From Gnetum montanum (Eukaryota > Plantae > Gnetophyta): 64,000 nt of DNA. Under the pieces are notes generated by a model. The model was given only the letters and a program-made list of their open reading frames with translations. It searched no databases and was not told the origin of the DNA. How positions within the stretch are numbered: the first letter of the stretch is position 1; each line of letters opens with the position of its first letter. Shown one piece after another: positions 20,881 through 64,000 of the stretch. The position numbers and the translations under genes were made by a program. The stretch covers positions 293,648-357,647 of the forward strand of contig MNCI01000986.1 in assembly GCA_015680685.1 (NCBI GenBank), read 5' to 3'.

Positions 20881-20962
20881 CAAGAGCGCGAGAGGGTGAC
20901 CTCCACGCCTCATCATCCAAAGAGCTGTGGCAGAGTTGCAGAGGAATCACAGCGCCAGCAAC

Positions 20963-31978: not shown

Positions 31979-34582
31979 TTAAAATGGTCCTAGACAGTGG
32001 AGGTTCTTGAGACTTTGAAGGAACTTCTCCTACTTCAAGCGCATGTGGTGGCTGAGGTGGTTGTGGCTATCTTGAGGCAGTTGCAACTTCTTGGGAAAGA
32101 TGGAAGGCATCCAATAGTACTTTCATCTTCTCCTTCTTACTTTTGGTATCATTCACAGTCCACACCACCTTGCAAATGTGGACTAGTGTGGGAACATCCC
32201 AAGGATAGGGCATTATCGGTAATAGCTCCTTCACATTAATGAACTAAATAGCAAAACATTTTCGTTCAACATTAAACACCTTGACTACATTCTTCAACTT
32301 TTAGTAGTCACTCATTCTCTTCGTTAGGTTCTCGGCTGTAGACCATTGATCGGTGAAGCACTACCTAATTACATTGAGTCTTTAATTTTCCACCTTAAGC
32401 TTCTACTTAGTGTCTTTGTGATGCTTGAACTCAGCTTTGTATAGTAAGTACGAACTAGCCACCTATTTCTCTAATTCAAACTACAACTATTTGATAGTTA
32501 GCATTGCTAGATTTGCATAGCAGAGATTGGCAAGCTCCATGAACTCTATCATGTCCTTGATTTGCCTCTCTTTCATGTAGATCTCCACCTTGTTGTAGTC
32601 ATTGAGCGCATCAAAAATAGGCTACCAGACATCACCTCCTTCCTTGAGTTATTGGAGGGCCTCATTAACTTTCACCTTCACTATCTAAATATGTTTTTCA
32701 TTGATTTATTTTTGTAGACCAATTTGATCTTTGTAGTGAATTTTAACTCTCTTAAATTTGAGAGCCTCATTTTTCTAGGTGGCCACCTCTATTATAGATT
32801 TTTTGACAAAGGGCCCAAACTTCCTCAATGGAGAGATTTATATTTTTGGTTGCCAATCTCCTTAGTTCAGTGTTTAGTCTAGCTAACTACTTCTGCTATT
32901 GATGGATGAAATCTTGCATTTGCTACTTTTGCACATCAACATTCCATAGGTAGTGATTTTCTATGATCATAGTAACCTTCTTCTAGTGAATTTGATTCAA
33001 GGTCTTTTGGATATTATGCATGGTAACATTGGCCAAGGATTGATCAACGATTGTTGTCTCCTTCACATTCTCAACCTTCTTAAGCTTTTCCTAAAGCTAT
33101 TAAAAAGCTTCATCACAAGTCAGTGTAGGGCTAAGAAATGCCAAATCAGCAAAGTGGGCCCTTAGTTTTGCTACCTCTATAGCCAAGCATTGGTTTTGAG
33201 CCTAGGCTATTTTGAGTTGCTCTTCCATGCTAATGCATTTTCCCTTTGCTTCCAATAGGTTTGACTAGGTTGTAGTGACTGTATCTGAAAGATCAAAGAC
33301 ATCTAAAATCAATTTCCTGATTCCCACTAGTTAGTCTAGTAACTCCTCATGTTGCGCTATGTTCAATTTACTGCTAACTATTCCTGTGGATGTCTGCACA
33401 TCTCTTAGTGTTGAACCATTTGGTATAGACACCATAGGTGTGTTTAATGCTTTGGTAATTCTATCAACAACCACCTCTACTACTGTCTCCTATCCATGGT
33501 GCTACATCACCAAGACAGTTGCTCCCTCACCCCCTCCAAGAGCACCGAGAAAGTAATGACATTCCTAGAGACTTCTAGAAATTGTTGTTGTTGTGAGAGA
33601 GAGATTGTTACCTCTTAAGTGCTAGGATTCGATCTTGTGGGCAGCTGCATTCTTTGAGTTGAGAAGATTAGCACACATCCTTCCATATAGCTAATGGTTT
33701 GAGCTAGTTCATTGAGGTGCCATTTTGCATAGTTTTCTAATGAGGTAAGGAAAGGGCAAGGCCTTTCTTCCATGTTTTTTTTTCCATAAGTCGCTTCTGT
33801 GTCTCCAAAAAGATTAGTTGTGGAAGATTCACAGGGAATTTCCCATTGAAAGTACCACATGCATGGGCAGAAAAGGCAATCACCTTACTAAACCTCATCG
33901 TTGGATTAAGATGATAGGTTCCTATCTTGAAATATACATGCTTCACTAGGGTGAGTGCACCATAGTCCTTGTAGTCTAGTCCATAACATCACTAGGTCTA
34001 CTCCTTCTTTGCCTCTAGGTCTACTTGTGTGAAGATCTCTATCAAATCTATTCCAATATTAGGGAAATCAAGGACCTGTGCAATATCCTCCACTGAGTAG
34101 GATACCTAAATCTCCTTGATCTTCACAGTGGCTCTTGCCTTCCTACCATTTTAGAAGAAATATGTCTCTTCCATGTACCATTCTCCATTGGAAGTGATGA
34201 TTGGCCACATGGGAGAGTTCTACAATGGTGCTTTGACTTTTGGTGGAGCATGTTCTAGGAATGATCCAAAGCTCAATTCTTAGAGAACTAAATGTTGGAT
34301 ATTACAAGGCTTGATCTGATCTAGGTAGGCTTGAGTTAATGTGACCTCAAGTCTTCGCACTGGTCCTGGTGCCTCATCCCAATGGGATTGTTTAATTATG
34401 GCCACTTTCTTGGGAATCCATTGGACAAATTCCACTTTAGGCTACTCCCAAAGATGTCTTGTTACATGAGTTTTTGGTGCTTGTTCTTGAGCTTGTTCTT
34501 GTTGCTCTCTTCTAACTCTAGGTTGTTTGTCCCTTGGTTGAAATAGTCCTCCTTCCTACATGTGTATTGTTCTAGGTGCCAC
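31979..34582 (-). pseudogene. Athila ORF2 ('env-like' accessory ORF): conserved N-terminal domain, long coiled-coil region and C-terminal PYPWDVP motif
   Basis: SPMWPIITSNGEWYMEETYFF*N, YFKIGTYHLNPT and MPYPWDVP are shared with 45440-47014 and 60042-62790. It occupies the slot just upstream of the PPT and 3' LTR. Confidence 0.75.
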
Positions 34583-35740
34583 ATGTAATCACAACATGAC
34601 CAAGGATTAGCACTTATTGTGTAACTTGAAATACTTGGAATACCTTATCTCTTAGGGTAGTTACACTTAGAAAAGTTGTGATCATGGTAGATTTGATTAT
34701 TTTAATATTATTTTATTATTATTTGATTAGATAGATTATTGCAGTGTGTTGGAAGGGTTTAACTCTCATAGGTTGATGATTTAATATTATTTTATTCATT
34801 AAACCCATGGGAGAGTTAGAAAAGTTCCATTTTTTTTTTCCAAAAACCTAAGGTTTGTCATCCCTGTGACATAAAGAATACCTTCGAAAGCTACAAGACT
34901 GAGGAACAAAGTGAATTGAACAAACAATTTAAAAGTTATGGGCTCTGGAAGATTTTAAACTTTGCAAAATTGTAATAACTTCCCTTAAATTTGAAGAAAA
35001 TGATAAAAAATTCCTAAGTGGTGGGCACTATATATAGAATTTTTTCCATGCATTGACTAGGCCTCATTGATGGGGCCTAGTTGATGTGGTTAGTTACATT
35101 AACTGGGCTTAGTTAACACAGATACTGATCCCTATTGACCAAGTAAAAATTAAAAAAAAAAATACAAAGAGCTTTTGAATGAGATTGGAAAAGTCCAAAA
35201 AGCCATGAACACAATGAGATACATGAAGAGGGCTTGAAATTTGATAAAATATGGACAATGATTGGAGAAATGCCTTAAGGAGTACATAGTTGGATGTAAC
35301 TGATGGGGTATACAAAAGATTTGATTGTCAAAATGTTCCTGGATAAGGGACTTAACTAGTCCAACCAAGAGCTATACAAGTGGATCCTCCCCATAGTAGG
35401 CTTATCCCCTTTTTTTGACCTTACATAGCCTCAACTAAGGAGTCCATGGGTCCCATAGTTGATTAATGGTTATGAAAAGTTAAGGACCAAATCTGAAAGA
35501 ATCTACTTAAGAATTTTAGCACATCAAACTAAGACATTGAACAAAAACATGAAAATCAGTAGTGAGGTGAGTTATGAAAAGCATTGATAGATGAGATAGA
35601 GATTGAAATGGATTTCCCAATCATGGTTGCATGAAGTCCCTTATGAATTTCATGGTTAAATGACCTGATCAAGTTCATCCTTAGTCTAGATCAAAACCAA
35701 CCAATTTTGATGACTTTGCATCATCACTCTAGGACCAGTT

Positions 35741-41200: not shown

Positions 41201-41580
41201 TATTGGGCAAGCCTTGGTTGGCCCAATTATGGGCTGTTTTGTCTTCCATTCATCAAGAAATCCACCTTTCATATGAAGGTGGTGATGTCATTATTCATGG
41301 TGATAATGTAGCCCCATTTCACCATAAACAACATTAACACAAAGCAAGGGTCAGAGGTGGAGTTTCTTGATGACGCATTCATAGTAAGGATGAGGATGAA
41401 ATAGGTGAGGCTAACCCACTCGAATAAATAGAAGAAGCCAATGACCTTCCAAAGGATACTTTATGGGAAAAAATACCCTTTGAAATAGTAGACGAAGATG
41501 AAGGGGAATACCACATAGTACCATCTAGGCCCTACACACCTCCTAACCCACACTGGGTTAGGAAGCAATTGTGCGACAAA
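38290..41580 (+). pseudogene. Tat/Ogre-type gag-protease pseudogene
   Basis: FTKYNSEGDRNTHLVTF, FAMSLIGKALY*Y, knuckle FCHYH*FPG*NTKFC (~39877-39920), and protease RVHVDDGAATNVIP and SFNLILGKPWLAQLWAVLSSIHQ. Boundaries are approximate. Confidence 0.85.
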
Positions 41581-41864
41581 TTTATCTCCTTAGTCCAAAC
41601 ATGTGTTAGGGGCTTACTTGCCCTTTATTTTTACATTTAGTCATGCATTAGATTTATCTACACATTTACATTTAGCTTTATTACTTAGATTTTGCATTAT
41701 TTTTCTTTTTTTACATAGTCATTTGCTTTATTTATACATTCTGTTTAGTCTATGAATTTCCTTATTTAGCTTATCTTTTAGTAGTTATTAGCTTATGCAT
41801 GAAAAACATGCAAATGAATAAAAATCAAAAAGCCAAAAAATCGCAAAAACAAAGTAGCTCTACA

Positions 41865-42030
41865 TGGCCCACCATGGCTTTAAACTAGCAATGTTATGGC
41901 CTGGAATGGCCTTAAACTACCATGGGGCCTAAAATGGCCTTAAACTATCATTGTGGCCCAAAATGACCCTAAACTAGCATGGGCCCTCCTGCTATGGCCT
42001 TAAACTAGCATGGGGCTCACAATGGCCTAG
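41865..42030. repeat. Tandem repeat of ~29 bp units (ATGGCCTTAAACTAGCATGGGGC...)
   Basis: Five to six copies of GGCCTTAAACTA(G/C/T)CA lying between convergent gag-PR and the antisense gene, an arrangement like Retand elements. Confidence 0.8.
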
Positions 42031-42229
42031 TTACATTATCACTGCATAATCTTAACTTAATGCATTAATCCATCGCATCACAACTATAGTAATCACAAAA
42101 GAAATAAAATAAAATAGAGTTTGCACATTGCACATATAGCAAACACATGTATTACATATCACGCAAATAGCAGTACATAGCATGAGCAGCATGAACAACA
42201 AAAAATACAAAAAAAAATGCAAAAATGCC

Positions 42230-44300: not shown

Positions 44301-44353
44301 CTGCAAAGAATATGAAGTGAACGTGGGATTGTGCCTAGATATTAAACCATAGC

Positions 44354-45237
44354 TGATGACCAGCGAGGTACCCGTATGCCCAACCATACAAATCACGAGC
44401 ATTCACGTGTGACCCAGTCGAATTCCAAAGACTACAAGCACTTATGTACAAAGAATTTTAGCTAGCAAAACCTTAGTTAGAGCAGTTGTTGTCTTCCCAA
44501 CCTTACTTGTGATATTCTAAAATGATGGTTGAGTGAGATTGAGGTAAATGATTTTTATAAGTTTTCTTTTTATCTTGAAATTCTAATTCTTTTAGTGTAG
44601 GAAATGAAAGGCTATATAATTTTACAATTACACTACTTTATCATTTAACTATTGCTCACATAAACAACCAATCCCATCCTCTGTGCACATCCTGAGCATG
44701 TCCTAACCACTACTAGGTTACCAGACATTAAGCATCATTGGGTTATCAAGTGTCAGATATATGTTCAAGATGGTCATGCTTGTGGTTCTCATAAACTATG
44801 AAAAGGACTGTAACTGTAAAGCCATAATAACAAAATCTAAAATTATTAAAATATTAAAATATTTTAATGCTTAAGTAGTTTAATCCAAATGCTGCAAGGA
44901 ATGTCAAAAATTTCATCTTTATTGTCCGTCATGCCAATGGGCTCAGGTACATTAGCAATCGAATAAAGAGTCGTATACTCTTCAACTCCTGCTACGAGTA
45001 CTTGGGAAATATTCTAACTTTTGTGGAAACAAAATACAAGAGCTTTTCTACAACTATATCAAAAAGATGCCACAAATGCTACGGGTGCATGCATATTTAT
45101 AGTAGAAGACAGACTCTTCGTTAATGAGGTCATGTTAATGCATGGACAGATGCGTCGATGGGGTTATGTCATTGTGGCCATGTCAATAAGGCTTAGTTAA
45201 CATAGCCCAGTCAATGCATCAACTGAACACTTCATCA
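44354..45237 (-). repeat. 3' LTR of Athila-like element 4
   Basis: TGATGACC...TTCATCA; homologous to the other Athila LTRs in the window. Confidence 0.88.
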
Positions 45238-45439
45238 TACCCCCACGACTGAGTGAAAACTCATCCTTGAGTTTATTACAACTTGGAAGGTATGAAGTTA
45301 TTAATGACACACACAACAAAACACATCTATATAAACACTAACTCTATCAACACACCAAGTGCCCAAGTGTATGAAAAAAAAAATTGCAAAATTATGGTGC
45401 TCATAGACAATGAAATTGAACACCCTAACAATAATGGAT

Positions 45440-47014
45440 TCTCAACCTTGCTGAAATGCTGAAGTTGCTAGAGAAGGTCACACAGTTCCTAGTGGCAGTG
45501 GTTCTGACGGGCCTTCACTAGCTTCTAGTGCACGTGGCGATTGAGGCATTGATGATGGTTACCTTGTGGTTGCTGCAACTTTTGGAGGTAATTAAAAAGC
45601 CTCCAAAAATGCCCTCATCTTGTCTTCTTTGCTTCTAGGATATTCACAGTCTAGGTAGCTTCGCCAATGTGTGCTGGAATAGGAACATCTCAAGGACATG
45701 GAAGTGCAGGGAAGAGTTTCTTCAAGTAGTGGCATTTCTTGAAATTTTAAGAAATAGTTGTTGGGTGGACACCATTACTTCTTGAACATTGGGGTCTGTT
45801 CTTGCAAGAACTTGTGTTCATGCAGCAGAAAACATCAGCCCTACTCTCTCTAGCATACTTACAGATCAAGCCACTTGTTCAAGATGGCTCATTGCAAGGT
45901 AGTACACTAAAGGGTCTTCTCCACTACCAGTTCCTATTGATTGCTCCTATTGGCTTAAGAATGATTATTGGATTTCACGTATGTGCTCTATGATATATGA
46001 AAATCTAACCTTGTTGCTTGTGCATGCAGTGGAGGTGGTTGTTGTTCTTTCCTTATTTATGTTGTGGCAGGAGTTTTGTCCTTCATCATCTCACACCACG
46101 AGGCAATTGGGGTGTGATGAAGTGTATCATTGGCATAATGTGCTATCCTTGCTTATTTGCACAATCTTTTAATTAGGTAAGGAAAGGGCAAAGCTCATCT
46201 TCCACATTCATTTTCAACAAATATTTTCTCAATTTCAAGAAAAAACAACTATGAAAAGTTTATGGGAAATTTTCCACCTAGAGTAGCACATGCAGGAGTA
46301 GAGAAGGCAGTGATCTTGTTGGGTCTTACTGTTGGATTTAAGTGGTAAGATGTGATTTTTGAGTAAACCCTCTCTATGATGGTTAATGTGTCGAACTCCT
46401 TACAGTCTACCCCATAGCACCACTTGATCCACTCCCTTTTCACCTCAAGGTCCACTTTTTTTGGAATCTCTACCACATTAGCCCCAGTCTCAGGCAACCC
46501 AAGAGCTTGCACGATTGCCTTTGCAGAGTAAGATACATGGATGTCCTTACTTCTTACTCTGGACCCCAGCTATTGATTTTTCTAGAAAAGATAAGTTTCT
46601 CCTAGATACCATTCACCATTGGACGTGATGATTGGCCCACATACGAGAATTTTGCAATTGGGTGTTGGCTTCTTCTGATGCATTTTCTAGAAATGGTCTA
46701 ACGTTTAATTCTTGAAGGACCATTCGTTGTAACTCCCTTGGCTTAATAGCATTAATACAAGCATGGGTTAGGGTGACCTCAAGTCGTGGTGCTATCGCTA
46801 GAGTCTCGTCCCCTTGCGATTGTTCACTAGGAACATCCTCTTCAGGAATCTAACGAACAGATTCCACGTTAGGTCCTTCGTAGAGAGGGCTATTTGCATG
46901 TGATCCCTCCACATGCTCTTGAGGTTATGCACCATATCCTCTTCCAGCTCTAGTTTTCTTGTCCCTCAGTTGTGAGATTCCTTCTTCCCTTGGATGCCTT
47001 AGTTTAGGTGCTAT
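45440..47014 (-). pseudogene. Athila ORF2, short form lacking most of the coiled-coil region
   Basis: ORF 46249-46512 (KREWIKWCYGVD..YSKITSYHLNPT) and C-terminal LPCP*DVP are shared with the other ORF2 copies. Confidence 0.7.
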
Positions 47015-49179
47015 TTGTAGTCATAGCATAACCATGAATTAAAATATGTATAAGTTGTTCAAAATGGAAATAATACACTTTCTCATTTTGGTCAAGCTAT
47101 GACAATGGCACATGCATCCTATTTGGTTCCCCGGAGTGTAGTTGATGTGTTAAAAAAATAATAAAATATGATAAATTTAAATTAATAATTACTTTTTGTT
47201 TGTTTAACCCTGAAGAGGTGTTAAGTCTTTGATAATCACAATAATCATAGATCCCTTCCCCCCACGATGTGGAGCATACCTTCGGTAGCAAAAGGGTAAA
47301 AAAAAATGGATAGATTGGAATACACAGTAGGAAAGGTATGTGCTTGAAAAGAAGACTGAACGTAGAAAAATCAAAAAGCTCCCCTAGTGTTATGAACAAG
47401 TGAACAAACTTCAAAGGCATGACGTGGTTATATATAGTATTTTTCTATTGTGTCGACGGGGCCGCGTAAACAAGGCTACGTAAATGTAGGTGGATGCATA
47501 TACAGGTCCTAGTTGATGTAGTCGTTCAGCTGAGTTGACCTACGTTGACCATTGAATTAAGAGCCCAATTCTATGAATTATAGCATAAAATTGGAGTGAT
47601 CCAAGAACCTAGAAGCTAGATAAAAATATGAGATAAAGAGAAAGGTAGATTGTGATCAAAAGAAGAGTCAAATTTAGGAGAATCATAACATGGAACTTGG
47701 TGGATGAAGAGCCTCACAATGGGCAGCATAGAAATGATCAACCAACTATATCAAAGGGGTAGGAGATTAACAAACGAAAACAAAGCATGTGGAAGTGAGT
47801 CCTTCCCATAGAAGGCTTCAACCTTGTTTGCCCCTTGCACATCATCAACATAAGACTTCATGAGCCCCATAGTTAATTAATGGCCACTGAAAGTTAGTAC
47901 TCACATCCATGAGAATTAGTCGAAGGTTTTACAAGTTCTAGCAAACCAAGAAAGATGATCAAAACATAAAACTGGGAGTGATGTAAGTAACAGAGAGCAA
48001 TTGATGAAGGGAAGAGGGTGTGAAATGAAATTCCTAATTGTGGTTACATGAAGTCCCTTGTGAAGTGTGTGATTAAGTGACCCGGTAGGATCCATCCTCA
48101 ATCCATACCAAAACCAAGCACATGCAGTGACTTTGCATCAACATTCTAAGACTAGTCCATCCTTTGAGACATAAGAATGCTCCTACAAAACAACCACCAT
48201 TCCAAAATGGATGAAAGATAGGAAGTGAGAAAGGGCCTTAGTTAGAGGGGATAAAACAAGTCCTATAACTAATGCTTGTAGCCTTTTAGAGTTGGTCTAA
48301 GGGGTGTGCTTTGAATTCTCATGTTTTTTTTTGTTGAATGGGAACCACACCATGCAAAAACCCATGCGTTTTTGCATGTATTTTGTCCAAGGAGTGTGCT
48401 TTGAATCCTCATCTTTTTCTTCCTTCTTTCTTGTATTTCTCTCTTTTTTTTTGAATGATGAGTACCACACCATGCAAGGACTGATTGCTATTTAAATTCC
48501 TGTTATGGAAGGATATGGAATGGTAAGAAGTCCATGAGAACACTCTCGCATACAGGGGAACCAAAAAGCACAAAGAATGTTGCATTCCCTTGATGTCACA
48601 CCTTATTCACACCATTGGATCCTCCTCAATTCTGGAAACTACACAAGTCACAAATTAATTAAAGTTGTTTTTAATGAAAAAGGGATTGCATGTTTCCAAA
48701 ATAAGGAAAACCATAGAGTGTGTGGATGGATGGATGATGTGGACTTACTACCTGTTACATGAAAAGAAAGTATAACTTAGCTTCTTAGAACAAAAAATGC
48801 TAAGGTAGGAACTAGATATAATAGGCAAATTATAATATGCAAACCACCACAAAGAGAAACAACTGCACCATTGTATTATGTGGCAATAAGATATCTTATT
48901 AGCAAAAAATATAAAACAATTGAAAGATAAGTAAGTATATACATATAGAAATAAAGAAAGAAAAAGTAGGTAAGAATTGTAAAACGTACGAATGATAGTG
49001 TAAAAGAAAAACCAAAAAAAAAAGAATTGAGGGGCCAGTAAAATATTTTAGCATGGATGGTAATCTCCCCCACGACTAAGCTGGGAGGAGGAGATCCAAA
49101 AAATGGAACAAGGCTAACTGTGCGATAAGAGGGTAGTGACACTGGTTTGGTGGGGTTCATGGAAGGGTTTTAATTATTG

Positions 49180-52100
49180 CATATTGACTAATTGTGTTCT
49201 ATAGGATCCTTAGGTTTGTGTATAAGTATGGCCCTACATGGAAAGGTCTTGGAAACAATATAAGATCCCTCTCACAGTGTTTGAAACTTAGTACATTGTG
49301 GTACATGTGTGGGGTTCCAATAGAGAATCTTATCTCCATCTTGAAATGTTACCTTTAAAATCATAAGATCATGACATTTTTTATTATAGGCCTTATGCAC
49401 TTCATTGGATGATAGGGCTACTAATCAATTATCATCTAGCACATTCAAGTTGATGAGTCGTTCTCGTTGTGCTAGGGATAAGTCAAGACCCAAGTAACTG
49501 GTGGTGGATAGTGTTCAGAGTTTTTCTTGAATTGGAAGTTTTGGTAGTTTTCTGTACACTAAATCATAAGGAGAGTAGCCTATAGGAAGTTTCCACATTA
49601 AGCGGTAGGCCCAGAGGGCATCGTTAAGTTTTGTGCTCCAATCTCTCCTATATTTGCTAACGGTCCTAGTTAGGATCTTTGTAATCTTCTTATTTATGAC
49701 TTTGGCTTGCCCATTGGCTTGGGGGTAATAGGGTGTTGTAAATTTATGTTCAACCCCCAAGAACTACATGAGTTTATGAAAAGTAGTACCCATGAAGTGA
49801 GTGTTGTTATCTGAAATGAGTGCATGTGGCACCCCAAACCTGTTCACAATTTTCTATTGGACAAACTATGCAGTCATGGTTGAGGAACAGTCAATGACAG
49901 CTACTGCCTTTGCCCACTTTGTATAGTAGTCTACTACGACGATGATATACACCTCCCCATTGGACATGGGTGTGATGGATCCCACGAAGTTGATGCCCCA
50001 AATATCGAAGGGTTCAAGTGGCTGAATTCACTGTTGAGGTCCCTCCATTCTTGTCATCATCCCACCATCTCTCTGACATTGTTCATAAGAGTAGATGAAC
50101 CATTAAGAACCTTCAAAGAGTGTAGGCCAATAGTAGCCTATAAGTAGGATCTTAATGGCCATGCACCATCTAGCATAATGGCCCCCACAAGGGCCCTCAT
50201 GAGCATCTTGAAGGATGTGCAGTTTATCCGCATCAGGGATGCACCATTGAACCAAGCCATCCATACACACCTTGTAAAGGTGTCCATTGATTTCCATGAA
50301 GTACTTGACTTTGTGAAGAAATTGTTATTTATTTCGATGATCCCACTCCTTTGGTAGCTTTTGTGTCAAAAGATAGGTAAGGATGTCGCCAAACCAAGTT
50401 GATCTTGTGGGCACTTTCTTGGCAATTGCTCCAACGAAGAGGAGTTCATCTGGAAACTAATTAGAGAGTGGCTCCTCCTCCTATGTGTGGTGCCATCGTA
50501 ACTGAGACAAGTGATCAGCAACCACATTCTCGATCCCCTTTTTGTCCACCATAGTAAGGTCAAATTCTTGAAGAATCATGAGCCACTATATTACATGGGG
50601 ACTTAGCGTTGGTTTGTTCATAAGGAACTGGATGGCACTATGGTCAGCATGCATAAACACCTTGTATTTGAGCACATAGTGTTGGAACTTTTCCAAGGTG
50701 AACACCACCACCATTAATTCTTTTTTGATGGTAGTGTAATTGAGCTAAGCACCCATAATGCTTCAGCTTGCATAGTGGATGTAATATGGACATTTTTGGT
50801 CATCCAACTGTGTCAGCATAGCTTCCAATGCATAATTAGACGTATTTTTCATGATGTGAAATGGTCTAGACTAGTCAAGTGTTTGTAGAATTAGAGTCTC
50901 TATGATTTTCTATTTTAGTGTTTGGAATGCAAACTCACATTCCCTAGTTTAGACAAACAGAGCGTCTTTCTTTGTTAGTTCCACCAATGGCATGGTGATC
51001 TTTAAGAAATTCTTGATGAAGCATTGATAGTAACCAATGTGTCCAAGGAATGACTGGACATCTTTTACAGTACCTGGTTGACTAGTGATTCCTTGGATAA
51101 TCCTAATTTTTTTAGGATCCACACTGATCCATGCTTGTAAGATTTAATTCCCTAGAACAATGTCCTCTTAGACCATTAAGTGGATCTTTTGCAAGTTGAG
51201 CCATAAATTATTTTCCACACATATTTTTAAAACTTGCTCAAGGTGGTCCAAGGCTTGCTCAAATGTTTCTCCATAGGTGGAGAAGTCATCCATGAAGACT
51301 TCTACACCATTGCCAAGCTGTTGCTGAAAGATGCTAAGGACAAGGTGTTGGAAGGTTGCAGGTGCATTGCATAGGCCAAAGGGCATCTTCTTATATGCAA
51401 AAGTCCCCTGGGGACTTGTAAATGTTTTCTTAGCATGGTCTTCAAGAACAATCTAGATTTGGTTATAGCCACTATAACTATCCAAGAAGCCATAGTAGCA
51501 ATGCCCCGAAATGGTATCCAACACTTGGTCCACAAATGGAAGTGGGGAATGATCCTTAAAAGTTACCATATTTAGTAATTGGAAATCTATACAGACTCTC
51601 CATTTGCCATCCTTCTTTTGCACAATAATGAGTGGATTGACCTATTCACTATCTACAATGGGATAGATGAATCCTGCTTTTAGCAATTGTTCAATTTTAT
51701 CTTTGATGATTTGCTTAAGTTTGGGATTCAATTGTCTTTGTGTCTATCATCATGGCTTCATGGAGGGGTTGATATAGATCCAATGTTGGCATACCCTAGG
51801 ATCAACTCCTATCAACTTAGGATATGACCATGCGAAAGTAGTCAACCATTTGTTCACCATCTTTAGCAGTCTTTTTTTTTTAGAAGCAAGAGTGGCATTG
51901 ATTATTACCGGCTTGCCATTTTGCAAGAATGCATATTCCAGATTGGCCAGTAAGGGTTTTAGTTCTAGGTGTTCCTATTTAAATTTTTTAGGGATCTGCA
52001 ACTTTCCCCAATTAGCATTGTCATTAATAGTGGAAAGTTGTTGATAGACTTATTCCAATTCATCCATGCTTTCCATATAGGCACATACAAGGCCTTCAAA

Positions 52101-52750
52101 GGATTCCATGCATATATTGCTACTATTAGAATTAGTGGTCAGCCACTAGGTGCCTTCCTGGTTAGTGGCTATTAGATACAAGCATTATTGAATTTGTGAT
52201 TCTGCAGCACATCGACTATATGCTTGAATGGATGCCCAATTAATGGACCAAAGTTACTGCACATAGTTGCACTCGGAATCACTGTATGTGATGCATGGAA
52301 CATGCTTCTTCTCAATCTTCCCAAAAGGATTTTCCTTTGAAATTTCAAGGGAAAGATCTCGGAGTCCCAAACATGCATCCACCATGCTGAGCCAAGCTCT
52401 TTCCATTATAATCAGAAAATCCCCCTTGCAATTATCAACACGGATGACCATGAAGTCAGCAGGGTAGGACCACCCACAAACAATGGTCATAATATCTTCT
52501 ACCAATCCCAAGGGAACCGTAATGGACTGGTCTGCTAGCTTAAGCCAAATGTTACTTTTCTTCAATAGGGGCAAGTACCAAGTCTTGTACATATCATGTG
52601 AAATCAAGTTGACACCTGACCTTGAATCCAAAAGTGCTTTGCATGGCTCGTTTCCTACCACTTGGAGGTATATGAGGGGACTCCATAGATTAGTCAATTT
52701 TCGAGGAAGATGACCTACCTTTATCCAGTCCATTATAACATGTGTTAACA
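49180..52750 (-). pseudogene. Athila pol: protease, reverse transcriptase, RNase H and integrase (degenerate)
   Basis: PR KALLDSRSGVNL; RT WRVCIDF..LN..KDHSPLPFVDQ, MPFGLCNAPATFQ, VFMDDFS; IN HEGPCGGHY, PFDIWGINFVG, ISDNNTHF, YYPQANGQAKVINK, DWSTKLNDALWAYR. Order is PR-RT-RH-IN. Confidence 0.95.
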
Positions 52751-53362
52751 TGATGGTTTGTACTTTTGGAGGTGTTTGGCTTGAAGGCTGCTCAAAGGAT
52801 CGAGTGGTAGAGGTGATTGGAGATTTAGAGGCACTAGCCATAAGTGAATGTGAGGGCATGTTTGGGTTATTGGGCTAGAAAAAGGAACGTTTCCATGGTT
52901 TTGATTCTGGCCCACTTGGCTAAGAAGCCAGTTGTAAATTGACAGCCCTTGTGGCATTACATTACTGTGGCTATGGTGGTATTTCTCCCTGCATAAGTGG
53001 AGCAAGAGGTAGTTGAGTTGAGGGTTGATGAGTAGGTATGGCAAGAGAAGATGGCGGAGGATAATGTAGATGTGGGTTCTTCCCCCTAGGTAATGAAGAC
53101 TAGGTTCAAAAGTATTTTGATGGATAGTAATGATTTTGGAAAGGTGCATGACAAGAAGAGTCTCACGGGGAGATTGGTTGTTGAACGTAGTACCCATAAG
53201 GATCTGGCTCCTGGTAAGGGTACAACTACCTTGGAGGTGGCATCCCCCATGATTGTGGGTGCTTCCATTACTGGTAATGCTCATAAGGTTGTGAGATGGG
53301 GGATCTCACAAAAGAGATCATGATGATGGGGGATGTTCATATTGGCAAATCACACCTCTCAT
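52750..53362 (-). pseudogene. C-terminal gag remnant of element 4
   Basis: Homologous to 26500-27070; ends at the zinc-knuckle codons at the fold-back junction. Confidence 0.7.
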
Positions 53363-53382
53363 AAGGACCTATCCATAAAAAA

Positions 53383-54744
53383 ATGAGAGGTTTGATTTGT
53401 CAATATGACCATCCCAAAGGATGTTGCCTTGTAGTGTACACATTGAATCCTTACCTAGCTTGTAGGCAAGCTCCTAGATGATTACCTTATCATCAAGCCA
53501 ACCTAAGGTAGTTCCACCAACAACAACAAGATTACTACCCAATTGAAACTCCTCCACAACTGTATGAACAATACCAACAATGGTACCAACCACAATCATG
53601 GGAATGCCACCACCAAGGCAGTAGTACCTTTATAGGCAACCAGATCCATATAGGTATTATGTTTAGTAGCCCATCTCTCCTAGAAGTTTTGCAAGTCATA
53701 TATCATTCCAGCATCACTATTACTCTTTAGAGTATCACCGAATACATTCACCATCTACTCATGGGGAAAACCCATATTTGTATCCTTATCATCCTCCATA
53801 TTTGTCTACACCTACACCTCCACCTTTAACCTAATTACCTCTTACTCCATCTATGCAAGGTGAGATTCTTGCATAGTCACAACAAAGGCACTCCCCTTCC
53901 CATGCCTCATCAAAAAACTATGTCAAAGGGGAGGAATAGCCCGCTATACTAATGATGTTATTTAATGCGCTTTGACCACTACCTAGAAGGAGATGATGAA
54001 GGATAAAACTCCTACAACAATAATCCAAAAAGAGGACCAGTAACCACCACCTCCACCTATCACTCAAAAAATAGTGTCAAATGTCACTGCAACATCCCAA
54101 CGGTTGCATGAGTTCTAAGAATGGCTCTTGAGCAAGCAAGAGCAATAAGTAGACATGCTCTTGAGCAAGAAAGAGCAATAAGTAGACATGAGTGATGGAG
54201 AGCCATATGTGCACCAGCCTATGAGTTACCTAAATGAGCTAGCCCAAACACTTAGCTAGATGGAGGAAGGTGGATCCATTTTCTTTGCCCAATGAATGTA
54301 GTTATTCACAAGGTAATATCCTAGCATCAAAGAGGTAATAGTATCTCTCTCAAAATAGTAGCAACTCCCAAAGATTTCTAGGAATGTAGCAACCATTTTA
54401 GTGCACTTGGAGGAGGGTGAGGGGACAATAATACTAGTGATGTAGCACTAAGGATAAGAAATAGCAATAGAGATGGTTGATGATAGAATCATTGAGACAC
54501 TCAATGCACCTGCAACAGTTATACTAGACGTCACTACACTTAAAGATGTGTAGACGTCCGTAGGGACCATAAGTAATAGATTAAGTGTAGCACAACATGA
54601 ATAACTACTAAATTGATTGGTCGGAATCGAGCAACTACTTCCAGATGTCTTTGATCTTCCAAATAGTATAACTGCAACATCGTTGGAGCTGCTAAAGACA
54701 AGGGGCAAGAATATTATTCTAGAAGGGAAACTTGAAATAGCCAA
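53383..54744 (+). mobile_element. Highly deleted Athila fragment (gag C-terminus joined to the middle of ORF2); host of element 5, resumes at 63832
   Basis: 53383-53880 is homologous to gag 26350-26880, and 54200-54744 to the reverse complement of ORF2 33200-33700. Confidence 0.75.
54125..54190 (+). repeat. 33-bp tandem duplication
   Basis: CTCTTGAGCAAG(C/A)AAGAGCAATAAGTAGACATG x2, with one mismatch. Confidence 0.9.
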
Positions 54745-55548
54745 CAATGAGTTGTGATTTGATGGGCCCTGACATTGGATACCCGACATCACCTCATCTG
54801 GATCTTGCCTATAAATACTGCACTTGGGCTCTCAGATGAGACAACATGTAGAACATAGGACATAATTTTAATTTTCAGTTTCTTCTATTTTAAGTCTACA
54901 TTTCTAGTGCATGCATGTAGCATGATGTTTGTAACCATATGAAACCTTTGTTTGAGTGTGACATACTTAGACATGTTGCATGATTGGCAATAAAAATTGA
55001 GATTAATCCCATCATTGCATCATCTACTTTGATTAATATTGTTGCTTTAATTATTTATTTTTTTCCTTAAACATTTCCATTTATTGTTATTTATTATTCC
55101 TATTATTAAGTGGAATGTATACACCTTAATCATGAGTGTGTAAGTGTAAATACTTGGTAATCCATAGGTGTATCATTTGGTACGACTAGTGATGTACACT
55201 TGGCAATCCATAAGTAATCTCACAAAGTCCAAGACATGTACAGATAGTTAGGAGAAAATACCATCACCCATAGGCTAGTTAGATTTTTTTTTTCCATTAT
55301 TCATTAGTTTAATAATTCATCTATTTATTGTCATCAGGAGTAGTGTAGAAATTAGATAACATCATATGCCTCACTCTGGAGTAAACCATATGTAACAAAG
55401 CTACCACTAAAGTGGGAAGATAGTGAACTATGATCAAAGCATAACAATCTATGTGTTACAACTAGTCCCATCCATGGAATTCTACTGAATTGCATATGAA
55501 TGCTTGTAATTCATATGGTTGAGCATAGGGGTACCTCACCACTTGTCA
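54745..55548 (+). repeat. 5' LTR of element 5 (terminal TG mutated to CA)
   Basis: Direct repeat of 62980-63826; TATAAATA at 54810. Confidence 0.9.
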
Positions 55549-55673
55549 TTAGCACCATTACTGGGGATGGTGCTAGTTATCTAGATTAGTTATATTATAC
55601 ATAACCCATGTAAAGGAATTAATGATATATCTTTTAGAAACTCTTCACTCACTCACACCATAAACCCAAAACA

Positions 55674-57850
55674 ATGTATTTTTTACATGGAAGTGACTAT
55701 GCACTATATAGCGAACACATTCATTGGAGAAATAATAAGATATATGATGAAGAAGACTACAATGATCAACCTTATGCAGGGGTTTCTTATGATTATGGCC
55801 ACTTTAACAGCACTCAAAGACTACATTCACCCAAGGTAGACAATCTTAGAGGAGATGACATAGGTCCTAAACTAGGGGAGGCCTCAAGGCCTAAAACCTC
55901 CTCAAAACTTGGAAATGATAAACCAAGGGACTTTGAGGAACACCATAGAAGCCATGGTAATTCTTCCAATTCCTCATCTTCCTCTTCCCCCTTAACATCT
56001 TGTTCTAATAAAGATGAACATAGGTATAGGGATAGAGCTCCATTAAAGGATCAAACAAAAAACTGGAATTGAATCCATAGGAAGAGTCAAAGAGGACACC
56101 ATGAACATAGGAACTTCCCTCATAATCTGTTTGATGATGATGAACCCCTGCTGGCCACTTGGAGCCTAATGCATATTACAAAGGCCATTAAGATATCTCC
56201 TAGGCATCACAAAAAGAGTCATTTACCCAAGCTAGACATGAATAATATTCCAAAATCTGCAAGAGGCTATGATTTAGATCTACAACATCATTTACAAGCC
56301 TTCCATGATGCTTGTGCTTTCTACAACATTGAAAGTGGATGGTAGAAGTGTAAGCTCTTTCCTAGGATACTAATTGATAAATCCAAAGTGTGGTATTAAT
56401 CATTGAAACCACATTCAATCCGATGGTGGTCAACAATGTTAGAAATTTTCAATGAGAGATACCAAACCTATAAGAGAGTGTCCTACCTAAGGAGAAAAAT
56501 CCAAGAGTGGAAACAAGAGCAACATGAACCCTTGAACATGGCCTTAGATAGATATTATGCCTTGCTAAATAAATGCCCAGGCCATGGTTTCTCTAAGGAA
56601 GAGAAACTTTACCACATCGTAGATGGGCTTCATAATGAAACAAGGGAAACCCTTGGGATGTATGCCCTAGGGAAACTATATGAGCTCCAAGCCCATCAAA
56701 TCAAAGAGCTCATAGAGCATATGGCAATAGAAGAAGGAGAAATGTGTAAATGGAAGTATGTTGAAAAACATCAATGGGACCCAACTCTTCAATCGAAGCA
56801 AGTCCAAATTTATGGTAAGGGAAATGAAACTACCTTTGATAAGGTGATCCCACAACAAACTTTGCCAATAAAGAAGTCTCTGGATGATTTAGAAGCAAAA
56901 TTTAATAGGATGTCTAAATGGATAAATGACATCATGATAACTCTTGTTAAGATGATCATAGAGAAGCTCATGCAACACAAGCCAGGTAATCACAATCAAT
57001 AGAGGATATAGAACCAAGCAACAACTAAGGACACTTTTCGGCAAATGAGAAAAATGGTTGACGAAAGTAAGGCTATATACTCCATTGCAAAAAAAGATGA
57101 TGGATGTAGCCTATTCATATATGACCACCCAAGGGGCCAATGCCCTATATTATTGCATCTATAGGAGTATTGGGTAGGTGCCTTAAATTTGAAACTTATG
57201 CAAAAGCACATGAACAAGAGACTTCCTCTCCCACAAGGTAATTTTAGATAGTCCCACAACCAATCATACCATCCTAGGGGGACTTATTACTAGCCTCAAC
57301 ATGATCATCAACTATAGTGGCAACAACCATAGTCATGGGGGAAGCCACCACCAAATCAACCATACTTGTCAAAACCTCATGGATATTATGTTCAACACCC
57401 TATTTCTCCAACTAGTTGGGTGTTCTCCACTTATAATTACCACTACCACTCTCCTAAGTATCATCAATACATGACATTCCCTGAAGGATCACCACCTCAT
57501 GCCTCTTACCATCCCACCTACCCTTGATATTCTCATAATTCACCTCCTTCAATGCCATCACTAGTAACTCAGGAAGGTCTAGCATCCCAATATCAACAAA
57601 CAAATGTCACTTGTGCTACGAATGTGCATAGACATGCTGATCCCAATGGGTCCCAACTACAACATCAAAAATGTTCCTTCTGGAGGAAAGCTCGTAAGCC
57701 AAAGCAAACCATGCATGAATCCACCACATCAACTAAGCTAGCACAAGGTCAATCTAGTGCACCACCTTCCCTTCCTCAACCAACGTCCTTCAGTTATACA
57801 CAAGGGCCACTATCCATTAGTACTTGAATCCCACATCCAACCAATGAATC
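55674..57850 (+). pseudogene. Athila gag pseudogene of element 5
   Basis: ORFs 55674-56072 and 56403-57002 (KPHSIRWWSTMLEIFNERY..LLNKCPGHGF..IVDGL) and knuckle remnant DGCSLFIYDHPRGQCP. Confidence 0.85.
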
Positions 57851-59445
57851 TACAAATATGGGAAGATAAATAAATCCATGCATACCACCTCATAATCAAG
57901 GGTGCAATCATGGGCCAGCCATCCATAATGTTCACACATCCTATAGCTTGACCCACCATACATATAACCATCAAGTGTGTCACCAACAATTTTTCTGCCA
58001 ATCCACCACACCATCAATAGGCACCTAGTGGCTAGGGCATGAAGGGTTCCCAATGTTTTATACATGCATGGATCCTATTCATCCACTTACTAATCCTAGT
58101 CATGACCAAATGTTTAGTCATTGGGATTACCCTCCATTATAATCTTTAGGATTTTTAAGTGTTTTTTCCTTTTTTGTTTTATAATTTTTTTATCATTTTC
58201 CTATTTCTTATACTTTTTTCTAGTTGTGATTTTAATTTTCTTGTATGTATTCTTGCTATTAATCATGTTTCCCATTGAGGTGAGGTTTTCTCTATGTTAT
58301 TGAGTCACAAGGGACTGATTATTTAGACATTGAGACCACGTCATCCATCCACCCATTCCATTAATAAGAGGTTCTTGCTCTAGTCATGATGGTAATCTTT
58401 TTCATCATCCAAACTCTAAATAACTTCATAATCATTGTGTTTGGATGGAAGAGTGCAGAACCAAGAAGGAATGTAATAGGTACGACATCAAGGGGATTTG
58501 TGGACTCTCTTTGGCTACTTTTGTGAGTTCTATTATGTTGCTGAGGTTGTAACCATATCCTTGTTGATCGAAAAAAATGGAAGTAAGAGCAACCTCACAT
58601 GGCATTGAATAAGCTTCTGTGGGTCCCACTAGAAAGACATGTACCCATGCCTAAAGGTTGGTAGCTTTATAGAACCCATCAAAAAACAATAATTGTGCCA
58701 TAATAACACTTCTTCCTTGGACAAAACACCAAGTGATGTTACTCCTTGCAACTTTAATAGTCTTATGATTATCTACTAATGAGATGAAACAATGCAGTGT
58801 CACTAAAAGATGGTTTGGACTCAATTCAAAGGTTGGAAAGATGGACACATGACTATTTAACCATTAATAACACCCAAGGTTTCATTGTTACATAGTACAA
58901 CATCTCATGTCCAGATTCCTATGATCCCTTCTACAATCCATCTCATATTATTGTCTGAATGCTCATAACTTGTGGTTTTATGTAACATAGAGTTGTTATC
59001 TCAATTCAGTGGTTTTAACATGTGTGTTTTGTTTCATAGGTAGGTGTTACATTCAACTCTAATAGTTCCTACAGACATTATCAGCATGATTACATAAGGG
59101 CATCATAAGCTAGAACTTGCTTTAGGAAGGATCGATTTGTGTAACTTTTGTGACTTGTACTTGTTTAACATGACCACATCATTTTTCACCTTTCATAAAC
59201 TCCATTTGTTATATTTTATTGTTTCCCATATCATATAATTTGTCCCATAGTCATGCTTTCAACACCCTTTTCTTGCTTGTTCTTGTACTTTTCATGTTAA
59301 CGACTTCACCTTATCCTACTTTCAGTGCCTCCAATTAATTTTCCACTTACCCAAATTGCAAAATTTAACTTGCAATATTCCAATCAACCCTAGAGCTTCA
59401 ATTTGCATGTCTTTTGGCCCCATCAAAATTGAAATTTTTGGACCT

Positions 59446-59487
59446 TGATGTCATGTACCTGACGTCGAGTTTGTACAAGCTTATAAA
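59446..59487 (+). promoter_or_regulatory. Putative internal ORF2 promoter (two CGACGTCG-derived palindromes 14 bp apart, then TATAAA at 59482)
   Basis: TGATGTCA at 59446, TGACGTCG at 59460 and TATAAA at 59482. The same geometry occurs at 35029-35086 and 47429-47486 on the minus strand. Confidence 0.55.
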
Positions 59488-60041
59488 CACAACCCCCACG
59501 ACACTTAGAACTTCATTTTTCTCATTTGATACTAGGGAAGTTGTTGAAATTTTTTCTCATGAGTTAGAGCTCTACGCCTCCATCTTCCACTTGTGATATC
59601 TAGCTCTCTAATGCTCTAATTTCTGTACCATTTCAATCTATCTAAACTTGGAGTGTTCAACTTAGTCGTGGGAGGTGCGTGCATGCAAACCTTATGTCGA
59701 TTTGTTAAAATTTTCTATTGCCTAGAAGGTATTCTAAGGGTAAGAATGTTAAAAACCTTAGGACTTATAATGAAAAATCATTAATGATAGCACTAGACAT
59801 CCAATTTTTCTAACCCTTGAGCCTATAACTGTTATTTTAAGCCCTAGATAATGAAAAAGGAACCAATCATGATGGGTCATAGAAGAAATACACACTTTTT
59901 GGGGGATTTTTCTTGAAACTTTTCCTAACCCTAAAATCATATGCATAATGAGCTTAATGAACTAAGGTTATGTGTAAGGTATGAATGGATTAATGATAAT
60001 AAATATAACCTTGGTAACACTTGGTTTTTGCTTGATTACAG

Positions 60042-62790
60042 ATGGCCCCAAAAAGAGGTTCTCACAGTGAACCCTTATGGAGAGCCACTAAGCATCCACA
60101 TGATGGTGATGACTAGCAAAGAGAACATGTGGAACATGTTGAACAAGAGGCCCAATGTTTCAGTATCCATCAAGAGGCCCTTGCTATTGGGCAATTGGCA
60201 CAAGGTGAGGTAGTAGAAGTATCAGCTCCTAAATAGGGACAACATCTCACATTGTCCCCTGACTGCCTTGCTGCCATCTTGGAAAAGTCCACATTGGCCT
60301 CGATGATTTTGGAAATGAACTTTAGCTTGTTCATGAAATTTTCCCCATAAGTGATGCAAATGCAACTCAAAACATCCCCATTGTGGCCAATCCTATCAGA
60401 CAATGGTGAATGGTACCTAGGGAAAGGCTATCAATTTTGGAACAATAAGGATGAAGGTACCACTATGAATATTTGTGGGATGAATGTCTCTTACCTAGTC
60501 AAAGATATAGCTCTAACTCTTAGCCTACCTAATGAAGGGGCCAAGGCTGCTCATCTATCCACTAGATCTAATCCTAAAACAAATAGACTATGGTTGAGGT
60601 GGGCATACAACAAAGAAGATAAGTCATACAATGAGATGACTTTGGAAGAGAGAACCTACTTTAAGATTGGGACGTACCATCTATTTCCTACCAAAGGGCT
60701 CAATTGAATCTTAACTTATGCAACTAGAGGAAGTACCATTCTAATGGAAAAATTTGTAGTTAACCTTCCCCAATATTACTTCACAGAAATCCAATAGTGG
60801 TTTAAAGAAACAAAGTTAGGGAGACCAACACTCCCATTTTCTTATTTGATCAGAAAGCTATGCAAGCATGCTAGAATCTTGGGATATACCAATGCTATCC
60901 CTAGAAAGGCTTAGCATGCCTCCTTCACAGAACTTCTAAAAACCATAGCACCAAGAAAAGATTCTAGTGAGGAGTAAGAAGCCAAAAATAAGGTAAAACT
61001 AAGAACAAAAATGCAACAAGAGCCTGAATAGCATCTACAAGCATAGGCTCAGCCATGACTACCGTAAGATTATAGACTGTCAATGAGCCACCTATAGAGA
61101 ATCGCTAAAACCATTAGCCGGGAAAGCAGGAATGAGGCCAATCTCTTCCACATTATGGATGATGTTGTACGACCCACTATATCAACCAATCTAACACAAG
61201 GAGAGATCTTAATTCAGTTAAAAGTAGGGGGATTCCAAACGTTATGCCAGATCTCTAGAAACGTTGCATCCTTTCAAGTCACCTTGGAAACTAGCAAAGG
61301 AACCATAGTTGTGGTGCTACAACATGAGGATGCAATGGGAATAATAGAGGTGATCACTAATCACATCAAGGAGTTATTTAATGTTCCTATTATGCCTTTG
61401 ACCAATCTAGCAGGAACTAGGGATGCACAAATGCTAGTCGGGACCTCAATGACTCTTATAGTGCATGAGGACGTGCTTGATTGTTTGTTGTAGATATGTC
61501 AAGTGATGACCACTTTATTTGACATCCCTAGTGATTTCACTAGAACACAGTCAAACCTCATCACTACCAAAGGAAAGTTGGTCATGGTTGAGGTTAGGGA
61601 AAAACATGCAAAAGCTAAAGTACATAGATTACAAGAAGAGCTAGCTAATCTGCGAACTAAATGATAGGATCCTACCTGATTTTTCATGCTTGACCAACTA
61701 AAACAATTTCGAATAGAAGAGCTTGCCAAGCTAGTGAAAGAAATAGCAGCTATAGAGTAGGAAAAGGAGATGGTGGTCTAGAATGCCTCCACTACAGATG
61801 TGCAAACCCATGTGCATAAAAAGGCACTGATCACCACCCAAGAAGAGAACAAGCAACTCATCATAGAGAATGCCTAATTGACCATAGTGGAGAAGCAAAA
61901 GAACATTTTGAAAGAGAGTGTCCACTAGTTAAGAGAACAACTAGTGAGGATCAACCAAGATATGAGTAGATTGGCCCAAGAAAATAGAACCCTCTCTATA
62001 GAGAAGGTACGTGCTATTCGTTAAAAGACAGCAATCAAGATCAACACATGGTAGAATGAGGCCAAGAAACATGAGAAGTTAAAAGAGAACCTCCATGACT
62101 AAGTTGGCATATATAAGGAAATTAATGAGATGGAAATCAAGATGGCCAAGGGCCACATCAGCTCCTTGGCAATGCAAAATTTTGAATGGCAGGCCATTTT
62201 GAATAGTTATGCCATGGTCCAACAAGTGGAAGTTAAAAATAAGGATCTATAAATAGAAGATTTGAAGGAATACATGTCATTGGCTAACCTCAGGTATGCC
62301 AACCTTACCATGTTAACAATAGATCATCCCCGAAGTGACTTGGAGAAGTAAGTGACAACCACCTATGCACTTTATGAAAAAGAGTTTGTAGATTGAAAAG
62401 ATGATTTGCAAAAGTTACAAGTGGCAAACTCAGAATTGGAGGTGGTCAAAGCTAGTTATCAAGGATAGAAAGATTTAGCCTCAAACCTAGCTCAGAGATT
62501 GATAGACTATCATGTGCTAAGAGATAAAGCTAGGGCTTTTGAGGAAGAACAATGATAGTTCGTGACATGGTACGTAAAGGTAAATCAAATGTTTCTATAG
62601 CTACCATGTCCTTGGGATGTACCAATGCCAACAAACATCATCATAGCAACCTAGATGATGCATGACCAAGGACAGAGGAGGAAAAATTGTAGGCCTTGCT
62701 CAACTGTTACAAATTTTAGTAGCCTGATGATAAAGGGAAGTGGCCAATGGAAGAGTCACCACCTCTAGGCACTACATGAGCTTTCTAATC
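60042..62790 (+). pseudogene. Athila ORF2 of element 5
   Basis: TTACAG|ATGGCCCC start; ORF 60351-60707 (SPLWPILSDNGEWYLGKGYQFWNN..YFKIGTYHLFPT); E/K/Q-rich coiled-coil-like region at 61600-62550; LPCPWDVP at ~62600. Confidence 0.78.
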
Positions 62791-62979
62791 TTATTTTTTT
62801 TATCTTATTTTGTAATAATGTGTCCCATTTTTGTACTGCACCACTGCAACATTTGAAGAGTTAGTTATTTTTTCCATTGTTTGAGTCAGTCAATAATCCC
62901 ATACCTACCCAATATTTTGTAAAGAACTTGTTCCTCATTTTTTTTAACTTAAGGACAAGTTTTCATTCAATTGTGGGGG

Positions 62980-63826
62980 TGATGAGTTGTGATTTGATGG
63001 GCCCTAATGTCAGGCCTAATAACTAACATTGGATACTCAATGTTGCCTCATCTAGATCTCACCTATAAATACTGCACTTGGGCTTCTGGATGAGACAACA
63101 TGTAGAACATATGGAATAGTTTAAATTTTTAGTTTCTTCTCTTTTAAGTCTACATTTCTAGTGCATATCCATAGCATGATGTTTGTAACTGTATGACATC
63201 TTTGTTTGAGTGTGACCTACTTGAACACATTACATGACTAGCAATAAAGATTGAGATTACTTCCATCATTATAGCATTCACTTTGATTAATACTATTACT
63301 TTAATTATTTAATGTTTTTCTTAGTTAAACATATTCATTTATTGTTATTTATTGTTCCTATTATTAAGTGTTCCTATTATTAAGTGGAATGTGTACACCT
63401 TAATCACAAGCATGTAAGTGTAAATACTTGGTAATCCATAGGTGTATCATTTGGTATAGCCAATGACATACACTTGGCAACCCAGAAGTAATCTCATGAA
63501 GTCCAAGACATATACAAATGGTTAGGAGCAGATACCATCACCCATAGGCTAGTTAGATTTTGTTTTCCATTATTCATTAGTTTACTTAATTCATCTCTTT
63601 ATTGTCATTAGGAGTAGCATAGAAATTAGACAATAACATATGCCTCACTCTGGACTAAACCATACATAATGAAACTACCACTAGTCTAAGTGGGAAGATA
63701 GCAAAGTGCAATCAAAGCCTAATAATTTAGGTGCCACAAATAGTCCCATCCATAGAATTCAACCAGATTGCATGTGAATGTTTGTAATTCATATGGTTGA
63801 GAATAGGGGTACATCATCACTCATCA
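62980..63826 (+). repeat. 3' LTR of element 5 (contains a private 16-bp tandem duplication at 63355-63386)
   Basis: TGATGAG...TCATCA followed by the TSD GCCAA; TTCCTATTATTAAGTG x2. Confidence 0.9.
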
Positions 63827-63831
63827 GCCAA

Positions 63832-64000
63832 GAAGCTGAATGAACACTTGGTTGTGGAAGTTATTGAAAAAAGAGCCCAAATTGTCAATCCTACACTTCT
63901 CAACCTAGCATTGACAAGAGATGAAGCTCTTGAATAGCTTTATACCAGGTTGAAAGGGGTTGAGGGTGCGATGGAGATGACAATGTTCTACCAATCCTTG
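63832..64000 (+). mobile_element. Continuation of the host Athila ORF2 fragment after element 5
   Basis: Continues the sequence broken at 54744; homologous to the reverse complement of ~33035-33200. Confidence 0.75.

Follow-up and report, generated by a model that had tools for sequence, protein, structure and literature searches.

A TATA-donor-acceptor module shared by three Athila-type retrotransposon copies of Gnetum montanum suggests an internal promoter and a 5'UTR intron in front of ORF2

The DNA analyzed here, a window of 64,000 nucleotides from Gnetum montanum (contig MNCI01000986.1), is plant DNA dense with nested, decayed LTR retrotransposons. Three decayed Athila-type copies were identified, one on the plus strand (copy A, 54745-63826) and two on the minus strand (copies B and C); their features are listed in Table 1. 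Copy A contains a gag frame and ORF2 and is non-autonomous: gag is not followed by pol, and no protein family was found in three frames of 58100-60041. Its two LTRs are identical at 684 of 802 aligned bases (85%), with 92 transitions and 26 transversions. The primer-binding site is five transitions away from the motif of loci L001, L002, L004, L010 and L013; judged from the motif, it is presumably of the tRNA-Asp type. Copy C retains ORF2 and the 3' LTR.

The assignment of these copies to the Athila type, made in an initial annotation from the sequence alone, was supported by tests of clade features, taken from the available portions of PMC6317226 and PMC2844528. The order RT, RNase H, integrase was found in copy B, a primer-binding site of the tRNA-Asp type (the Athila type according to PMC2844528, in the portion available) and a 5-bp target-site duplication in copy A, and an extra sense ORF lies between pol and the 3' LTR. 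The absence of an archaeal RNase H distinguishes Athila from Tat in the same sources, and no such family was detected in three frames of 48000-53400 of copy B, a decayed sequence missing the 5' part of gag. The RT of copy B was 50-51% identical to conifer-named proteins and 44-48% identical to most angiosperm-named ones. In a tree of 35 rows, unrooted (midpoint root) and with no Tat outgroup, it formed a long branch (0.9) between the conifer-named and the angiosperm rows, the latter including a PF03078-bearing locus. On these sequence comparisons we call the family Athila-type and deep-branching. Copies A, B and C are all dead, with stops and CpG loss (CpG observed/expected 0.12-0.23), and the candidate promoter module that they carry is a fossil of the workings of an active family.

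Table 1. Features of copies A, B and C (window positions)
Feature	Position	Strand	Remarks
Copy A target-site duplication GCCAA	54740-54744 and 63827-63831	+	
Copy A 5' LTR	54745..55548	+	own TATA near 54811
Copy A primer-binding site, decayed	55549..55567	+	motif common to 5 related intact loci
Copy A gag-like frame, decayed	55701..58030	+	Retrotrans_gag E 2e-10
Copy A internal TATA	59482..59487	+	
Copy A conserved T-rich tract and AGGG(A/G)AG block	59510..59545	+	leader start, or alternatively splice acceptor (AG 59534-59535)
Copy A initiator-like TCAT	59513-59516	+	31-34 nt after TATA; predicted start site
Copy A conserved local splice-donor motif	59725..59734	+	GT at 59729
Copy A predicted 5'UTR intron	59729..60041	+	313 nt; 13 upstream ATGs; branch-like TAAC 60015-60018
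Second AAGGTAT donor-like site, copy A	59976-59982	+	61-63 nt before ORF2 ATG (A and C); donor-like site at 59979
Second AAGGTAT donor-like site, copy C	34646-34640	-	
Copy A acceptor AG	60040-60041	+	directly before ORF2 ATG 60042
Copy A ORF2	60042..62714	+	one frame, 891 codons, 31 stops; Transposase_32-like N-terminal domain
Copy A polypurine tract	62969-62979	+	
Copy A 3' LTR	62980-63826	+	
Copy B gag end and pol, decayed	48000..53400	-	RT, RNase H, integrase, one frame, Ty3/gypsy order
Copy B module	47015..47436	-	TATA 47436, AG 47385-47384, donor GT 47279, predicted 265-nt intron to 47015
Copy B ORF2	45300..47014	-	decayed; internal deletion after about 46010; PF20167 E 3e-6 (below curated cut-off)
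Copy B 3' LTR	about 45237-44354	-	
Copy C module	34583..35036	-	TATA 35036, AG 34985-34984, donor GT 34881, predicted 299-nt intron to 34583
Copy C ORF2	32000..34582	-	decayed, frameshifts
Copy C 3' LTR	about 31725-30811	-	

Other parts of the nest belong to the same group of elements. A gag-only sister of copy A (element E; 3681-9869, minus strand; 5.4 kb between LTR starts) has neither pol, ORF2 nor the module, and a fourth, internally deleted copy (53400-54741 and 63832-64000, plus strand), in which a gag piece is fused to the middle of ORF2, received the insertion of copy A inside its ORF2. The presence in copy A of gag and of an ORF2 frame of full length, free of frameshifts, together with the lack of pol, suggests a non-autonomous subfamily that retained ORF2. 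The stretch just 5' of the polypurine tract (45232-45281 in copy B, 62888-62949 in copy A) is common to both copies, collects many RNA reads from relatives and is a conserved 3' signal.

Upstream of each ORF2 the same series of motifs was found: an internal TATA, a donor motif and, immediately before the ORF2 start, the end of a predicted intron. Every coordinate proposed earlier for the module was correct, and the decayed acceptor and start forms at 47014 (B) and 34582 (C) were exactly as first described. The TATA-to-donor distance is 247 nt in copy A, 157 nt in B and 155 nt in C, and the predicted introns (313, 265 and 299 nt, respectively) have an A+T content of 66-71%. All three copies carry an initiator-like TCAY, 31-35 nt from the start of the TATA, and a branch-like TAA(C/T), which in each copy precedes the intron end by 23 nt. 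No ATG occurs in the leader of B or C (3.2 expected) and four occur in that of A; the predicted introns have eight ATGs each in B and C and 13 in A. By a splice-donor matrix the donor of copy A scored 3.1, below three other GT sites in the same leader. The second donor-like site of copies A and C could possibly define an alternative, very short intron.

The ORF2 proteins of A are 37-39% identical to those of B and C, and protein alignment showed the three ORF2 starts to be homologous. The donor 10-mer GAAGGTATKC occurs three times in the window, only at the three donors (0.23 expected; 0 of 100 shuffles). As this motif was chosen after the fact, a position-matched test was added, in which an 8-mer of shuffled copy A was shared with B and C at the matching position in 55 of 2000 shuffles, and at any position in 1573 of 2000. 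For the 70 nt following the TATA, with the TATA itself masked, comparison of A with B and C gave z values of 3.9 and 4.7 (0 of 500 shuffles each), and for the last 35 nt of the intron 3.5 and 5.1. Background values were obtained for the intron core (z -1.9 and 0.2) and for the 300 nt upstream of the TATA (1.2 and 0.0). Conservation between A and B or C is thus confined to islands, namely the TATA block, the donor and the acceptor, separated by diverged spacers. Unanchored local alignment of the TATA block was equalled in 8 of 300 shuffles for A-C and in 116 of 300 for A-B, the latter not being significant, and a TATA at initiator-like spacing is not rare in the window (19 found, 12.75 expected). 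Copies B and C are closer kin and hence amount to little more than one witness. Profiles of the TATA block and the acceptor, searched against the window and 79 external loci, matched the three copies only. By island conservation and shuffling, the shared TATA-donor-acceptor module pointed out initially is real and moderately above chance.

The N-terminal domain of ORF2 resembles PF20167 (Transposase_32), with E values of 6e-4 (A) and 3e-6 (B), both below the curated cut-off, and ORF2 matched a profile of the ORF2 of relatives with a probability of 66% (E 5.5e-5). The tail of the copy A protein, judged by eye, is likely a long coiled coil. The extra ORF had been labeled env-like, a label made doubtful by the lack of a membrane-spanning stretch: none was found in copy A ORF2 (best 19-residue hydropathy 1.52), and no 19-residue window rose above 1.6 in the ORF2 of A or of loci L002, L010 and L034; the PF03078 protein of locus L030 reaches 2.3. 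ORF2 is probably a soluble nuclear protein and not an envelope. Of 3322 candidates with lengths of 490-1560 aa, none matched ORF2 at E 0.001, a search of 1.84 billion representatives yielded one relative of 103 aa, and a search of metagenomes found no locus.

Eight RNA runs bearing the same species label were listed, none of them as carrying copy A, which is evidence in neither direction. Almost all reads that matched at 80% likeness came from relatives. The predicted ORF2 junction was not seen among the joints listed in the first read survey (15 of 34), and no joint was listed for the copy B module, which 94 reads from four runs covered, on the basis of 2-26% of the reads of each. Sixteen unspliced reads cross the acceptor of copy B (six in run X1, five each in X4 and X6, none in X3). 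Hence the splice junction predicted initially did not appear, in a test of low power: the first exon of the relatives was unmapped, so that a junction could appear only as a loose end, and five loose ends fell outside the listing. Moreover, in all unspliced reads of X1 the first mate maps to the minus strand, usually antisense in stranded libraries, and these reads may therefore not test splicing. In this run, position 47006 is covered by ten reads and 47012 by six. At the place homologous to copy B, reads from relatives show a canonical acceptor in 11 of 16 cases and a canonical start in 17 of 17, indicating that the deviant forms of B are due to decay. Around the donor of B, 13 reads fit over about 35 nt with their flanks unmapped, nine of them sharing one start, and this island of reads reaches about 20 nt into the intron. 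A lower read depth upstream of the B TATA than over the ORF2 start was rejected as evidence of a start site, since reads that relatives yield from diverged non-coding DNA do not map.

Athila elements of other plants were obtained by scanning metagenomes with an RT alignment of conifer type, which gave 79 loci; the 36 with long downstream sequence were screened. The ORF2 start could be placed in 16 of them, eight angiosperm-type and eight conifer-type, representing 11 families. The best donor 60-700 nt upstream of ORF2 surpassed shuffled sequence (10 or fewer of 100) in nine of the 16 loci and in six of the 11 families; in the controls, none of the 16 did so on the opposite strand and two did so in the region further upstream. 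In the angiosperm-type loci a YAG lies within 10 nt of the ORF2 ATG in seven of eight, and the 150 nt before the donor are free of ATG in all six checked (6.9 ATGs expected); no TATA-like word was found in the 300 nt preceding the donor in any of six checked. The full layout of leader, donor, intron and acceptor is present in L034, in the family of L059, L026 and L038 and, less clearly, in L020; L042 has neither donor nor acceptor. The word AGGTA(T/C)G is common in the conifer-type loci, 147-290 nt before ORF2, and the pairs L001/L003 and L010/L013 show unconserved acceptors and TATA boxes and three to five ATGs before the donor. Since the word occurs there with no conserved acceptor, it need not be a donor. 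Loci L002, L010 and L064 have TATA boxes 100-170 nt ahead of ORF2, which at first suggested intronless promoters; this reading was dropped because the box of L010 is missing in its relative L013.

The three copies share the motifs, their order and spacing, the conservation in islands and a homologous ORF2, and we consider it rather probable that the module is an internal promoter followed by a 5'UTR intron in front of ORF2. ORF2 would then form a second transcription unit, its RNA started from the internal TATA promoter about 33 nt downstream of the TATA, giving a leader exon of 120-215 nt. Removal of the predicted intron of 265-313 nt would join this exon directly to the ORF2 start codon and clear 8-13 upstream ATGs, so that ORF2 would be translatable as a first cistron independently of an LTR transcript; full-length RNA would be left unspliced, presumably for packaging. 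Sister element E, which is without both ORF2 and the module, speaks for the internal promoter. The initial proposal is thus supported as regards the local donor-intron-acceptor layout, conserved in the window and in elements of other plants, while independent transcription is the part that we infer.

In the strongest rival reading, the T-rich tract with an AG about 50 nt after the TATA may itself be a splice acceptor, and the leader may therefore be an internal non-coding exon of RNA started in the LTR, giving an LTR exon, an exon of 100-190 nt and ORF2. The AG (59534, 47385 and 34985) follows 20 nt of 65-75% pyrimidine at an equal place in all copies, the initiator-like TCAY could serve as a branch point, a GTAAGT is found in the LTR of copy A (63414, score 4.2), and the angiosperm-type external loci lack a TATA. 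We regard this arrangement as unlikely, given that copy C has AAG and not YAG, that conservation extends about 7 nt beyond the AG, more than an acceptor needs, and that the stretch from TATA to tract is C-rich. Plant introns, by contrast, end in U-rich sequence. An internal promoter has, in addition, been reported for Athila6A in the accessible text of PMC4977677.

Retrovirus-like splicing, in which the acceptor would be used by a donor in the LTR or its leader and the local donor and TATA words would be DNA-level or RNA-structure elements, is the long-standing view (PMC7197481, PMC7264820 and PMC2829016, in the parts available). The AGGTA(T/C)G words of conifer-type loci with no conserved acceptor fit it, as does the island of reads running about 20 nt into the intron of B. 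We find it improbable for this family, as no strong donor is present in the 5' LTR or leader of copy A (best score 1.6, in a decayed sequence) and the external loci show a strand-specific donor excess and ATG-free leaders. An alternative in which the common words play no part in expressing ORF2, and are present as inherited remnants or by chance, could be argued from the small number of copies (three, of which two are closely related), from the post hoc motif, from the 55 of 2000 shuffles with a position-matched 8-mer and from the non-significant A-B alignment; three separate islands in the expected order, with spacers at background, and an equal layout in unrelated angiosperm families make this very improbable.

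An internal promoter for the second ORF of an Athila element has a precedent: for Arabidopsis Athila6A, the sections available of Panda et al. 2016 (PMC4977677) define start sites and one intron as well as an "ENV ORF promoter" or "internal promoter region". Athila6A has one annotated intron and, as is probable for the family described here, an internal promoter for its second ORF; the available text gives neither intron position nor motifs, and the likeness rests on the description. In contrast with Athila6A, the present family is a deep branch, its ORF2 is PF20167-like and not PF03078, and the acceptor abuts the ATG. Available portions of Lee et al. 2020 (PMC7197481) and of Vicient and Casacuberta 2020 (PMC7264820) describe LTR-driven or spliced expression, and an internal promoter is raised for the env of Sirevirus in PMC2829016, within the text available. 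The accessible parts of PMC2829016, PMC7264820 and PMC7197481 cite a model of spliced env-like RNA for Athila4, Calypso and Bagy-2. These elements share with our copies a splice acceptor right before the extra 3' ORF; different here are a conserved donor 265-313 nt before that acceptor, preceded by a TATA block, and an ORF2 devoid of membrane helices. Gene23 of maize Grande has its own promoter (PMC7264820, available part) and is, like the present ORF2 with its predicted promoter, an extra 3' ORF of an OTA retrotransposon; gene23 is antisense and belongs to the Tat/Retand clade, while this ORF2 is sense. No published description of a TATA-donor-intron-acceptor cassette across Athila families was found in the literature covered here, and nothing further was contained in the available parts of PMC3276544, PMC3817159, PMC11410651, PMC7385966 and bioRxiv 2020.02.20.956714. 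In the portions available, the literature is split on the expression of the Athila extra ORF, between an internal promoter (2016) and splicing of LTR RNA (2020). The exact start sites and junctions predicted here, for a deep-branching family and three angiosperm families, can be tested directly with long-read or 5'-end data.

A possible function of ORF2 was suggested by structure prediction. The model of the ORF2 domain of the intact relative L034 (L034:7037-7780; pLDDT 77) found its best match in VANC21-DNA (PDB 9lnk/9lnj), with 197 of 248 residues aligned at 12% identity, an rmsd of 4.2 and a Z of 6.3, and a Z under 8 can reflect a common arrangement. Of the 48,161 chains compared, VANC21 alone reached a Z of at least 5; the next best reached Z 3.8, and the others aligned at most 89 residues. 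Foldseek gave a TM of 0.42 (E 1.7) for the same pair. The ORF2 domain of the window gave a poor model (pLDDT 54.8), with a best Z of 2.9, no match at Z 5 or more and none in a viral structure library. From the L034 model, Transposase_32 may be a relative of VANC and the plant mobile domain.

Family-specific repeated 8-mers were found in the 1.1 kb before ORF2 in seven of the 16 external loci (0 of 50 shuffles). These arrays (L034, L059, L026, L038, L030, L002 and L003) comprise 5-13 copies, most with CG, and sit inside and around the predicted leader intron; no such array was detected in copies A, B and C of the window. VANC21, an anti-silencing factor of VANDAL transposons, binds motif arrays in introns and intergenic DNA (PMC5735166, in the text available). 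Plant mobile domains (MAIN/MAIL1) are carried by Gypsy elements according to the available part of PMC5418596, and a likeness of VANC to MAIL1 is described in bioRxiv 2024.04.02.587720, section 7 of which does not connect this likeness with ATHILA. The possible resemblance of VANC21/VANDAL, as described in those portions, to the relatives examined here consists of the fold match of the L034 model and of short motif arrays in non-coding DNA near the gene; VANDAL is a DNA transposon and not a retrotransposon, and the match is at 12% identity with Z under 8. We take this modeled likeness in fold and motif arrays as a lead. It is conceivable, if doubtful, that the Athila "env" is transcribed separately and encodes a VANC-like DNA-binding protein. 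Its ancient promoter-leader-intron cassette would then allow expression of ORF2 even under silencing of the LTR, and its product would bind the family-specific arrays in the non-coding DNA of its own element and counter silencing. Were this true, an LTR retrotransposon would possess an anti-silencing system that had been retained from gymnosperm-grade lineages through to flowering plants; a VANC-like ORF2 would replace the "plant endogenous retrovirus" reading of this genome-filling clade by an anti-silencing one.

Some further features of the window were noted. On its upstream side, copy C is flanked by an unrelated insertion of 8.6 kb (35750-44350). It contains short tandem repeats near 35784-36238 and 41865-42028, and the three minus-strand frames of 35700-40200 showed no Pfam family of note. 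Diverged direct repeats at 306-833 and 12713-13410, 12.6 kb apart, together with a weak RVT_2 match at 10217-10546, probably represent a copia element. A class III peroxidase-like pseudogene (20874-21900, plus strand; Pfam peroxidase E 2e-11, in-frame stops) is rich in GC and CpG, unlike its surroundings.
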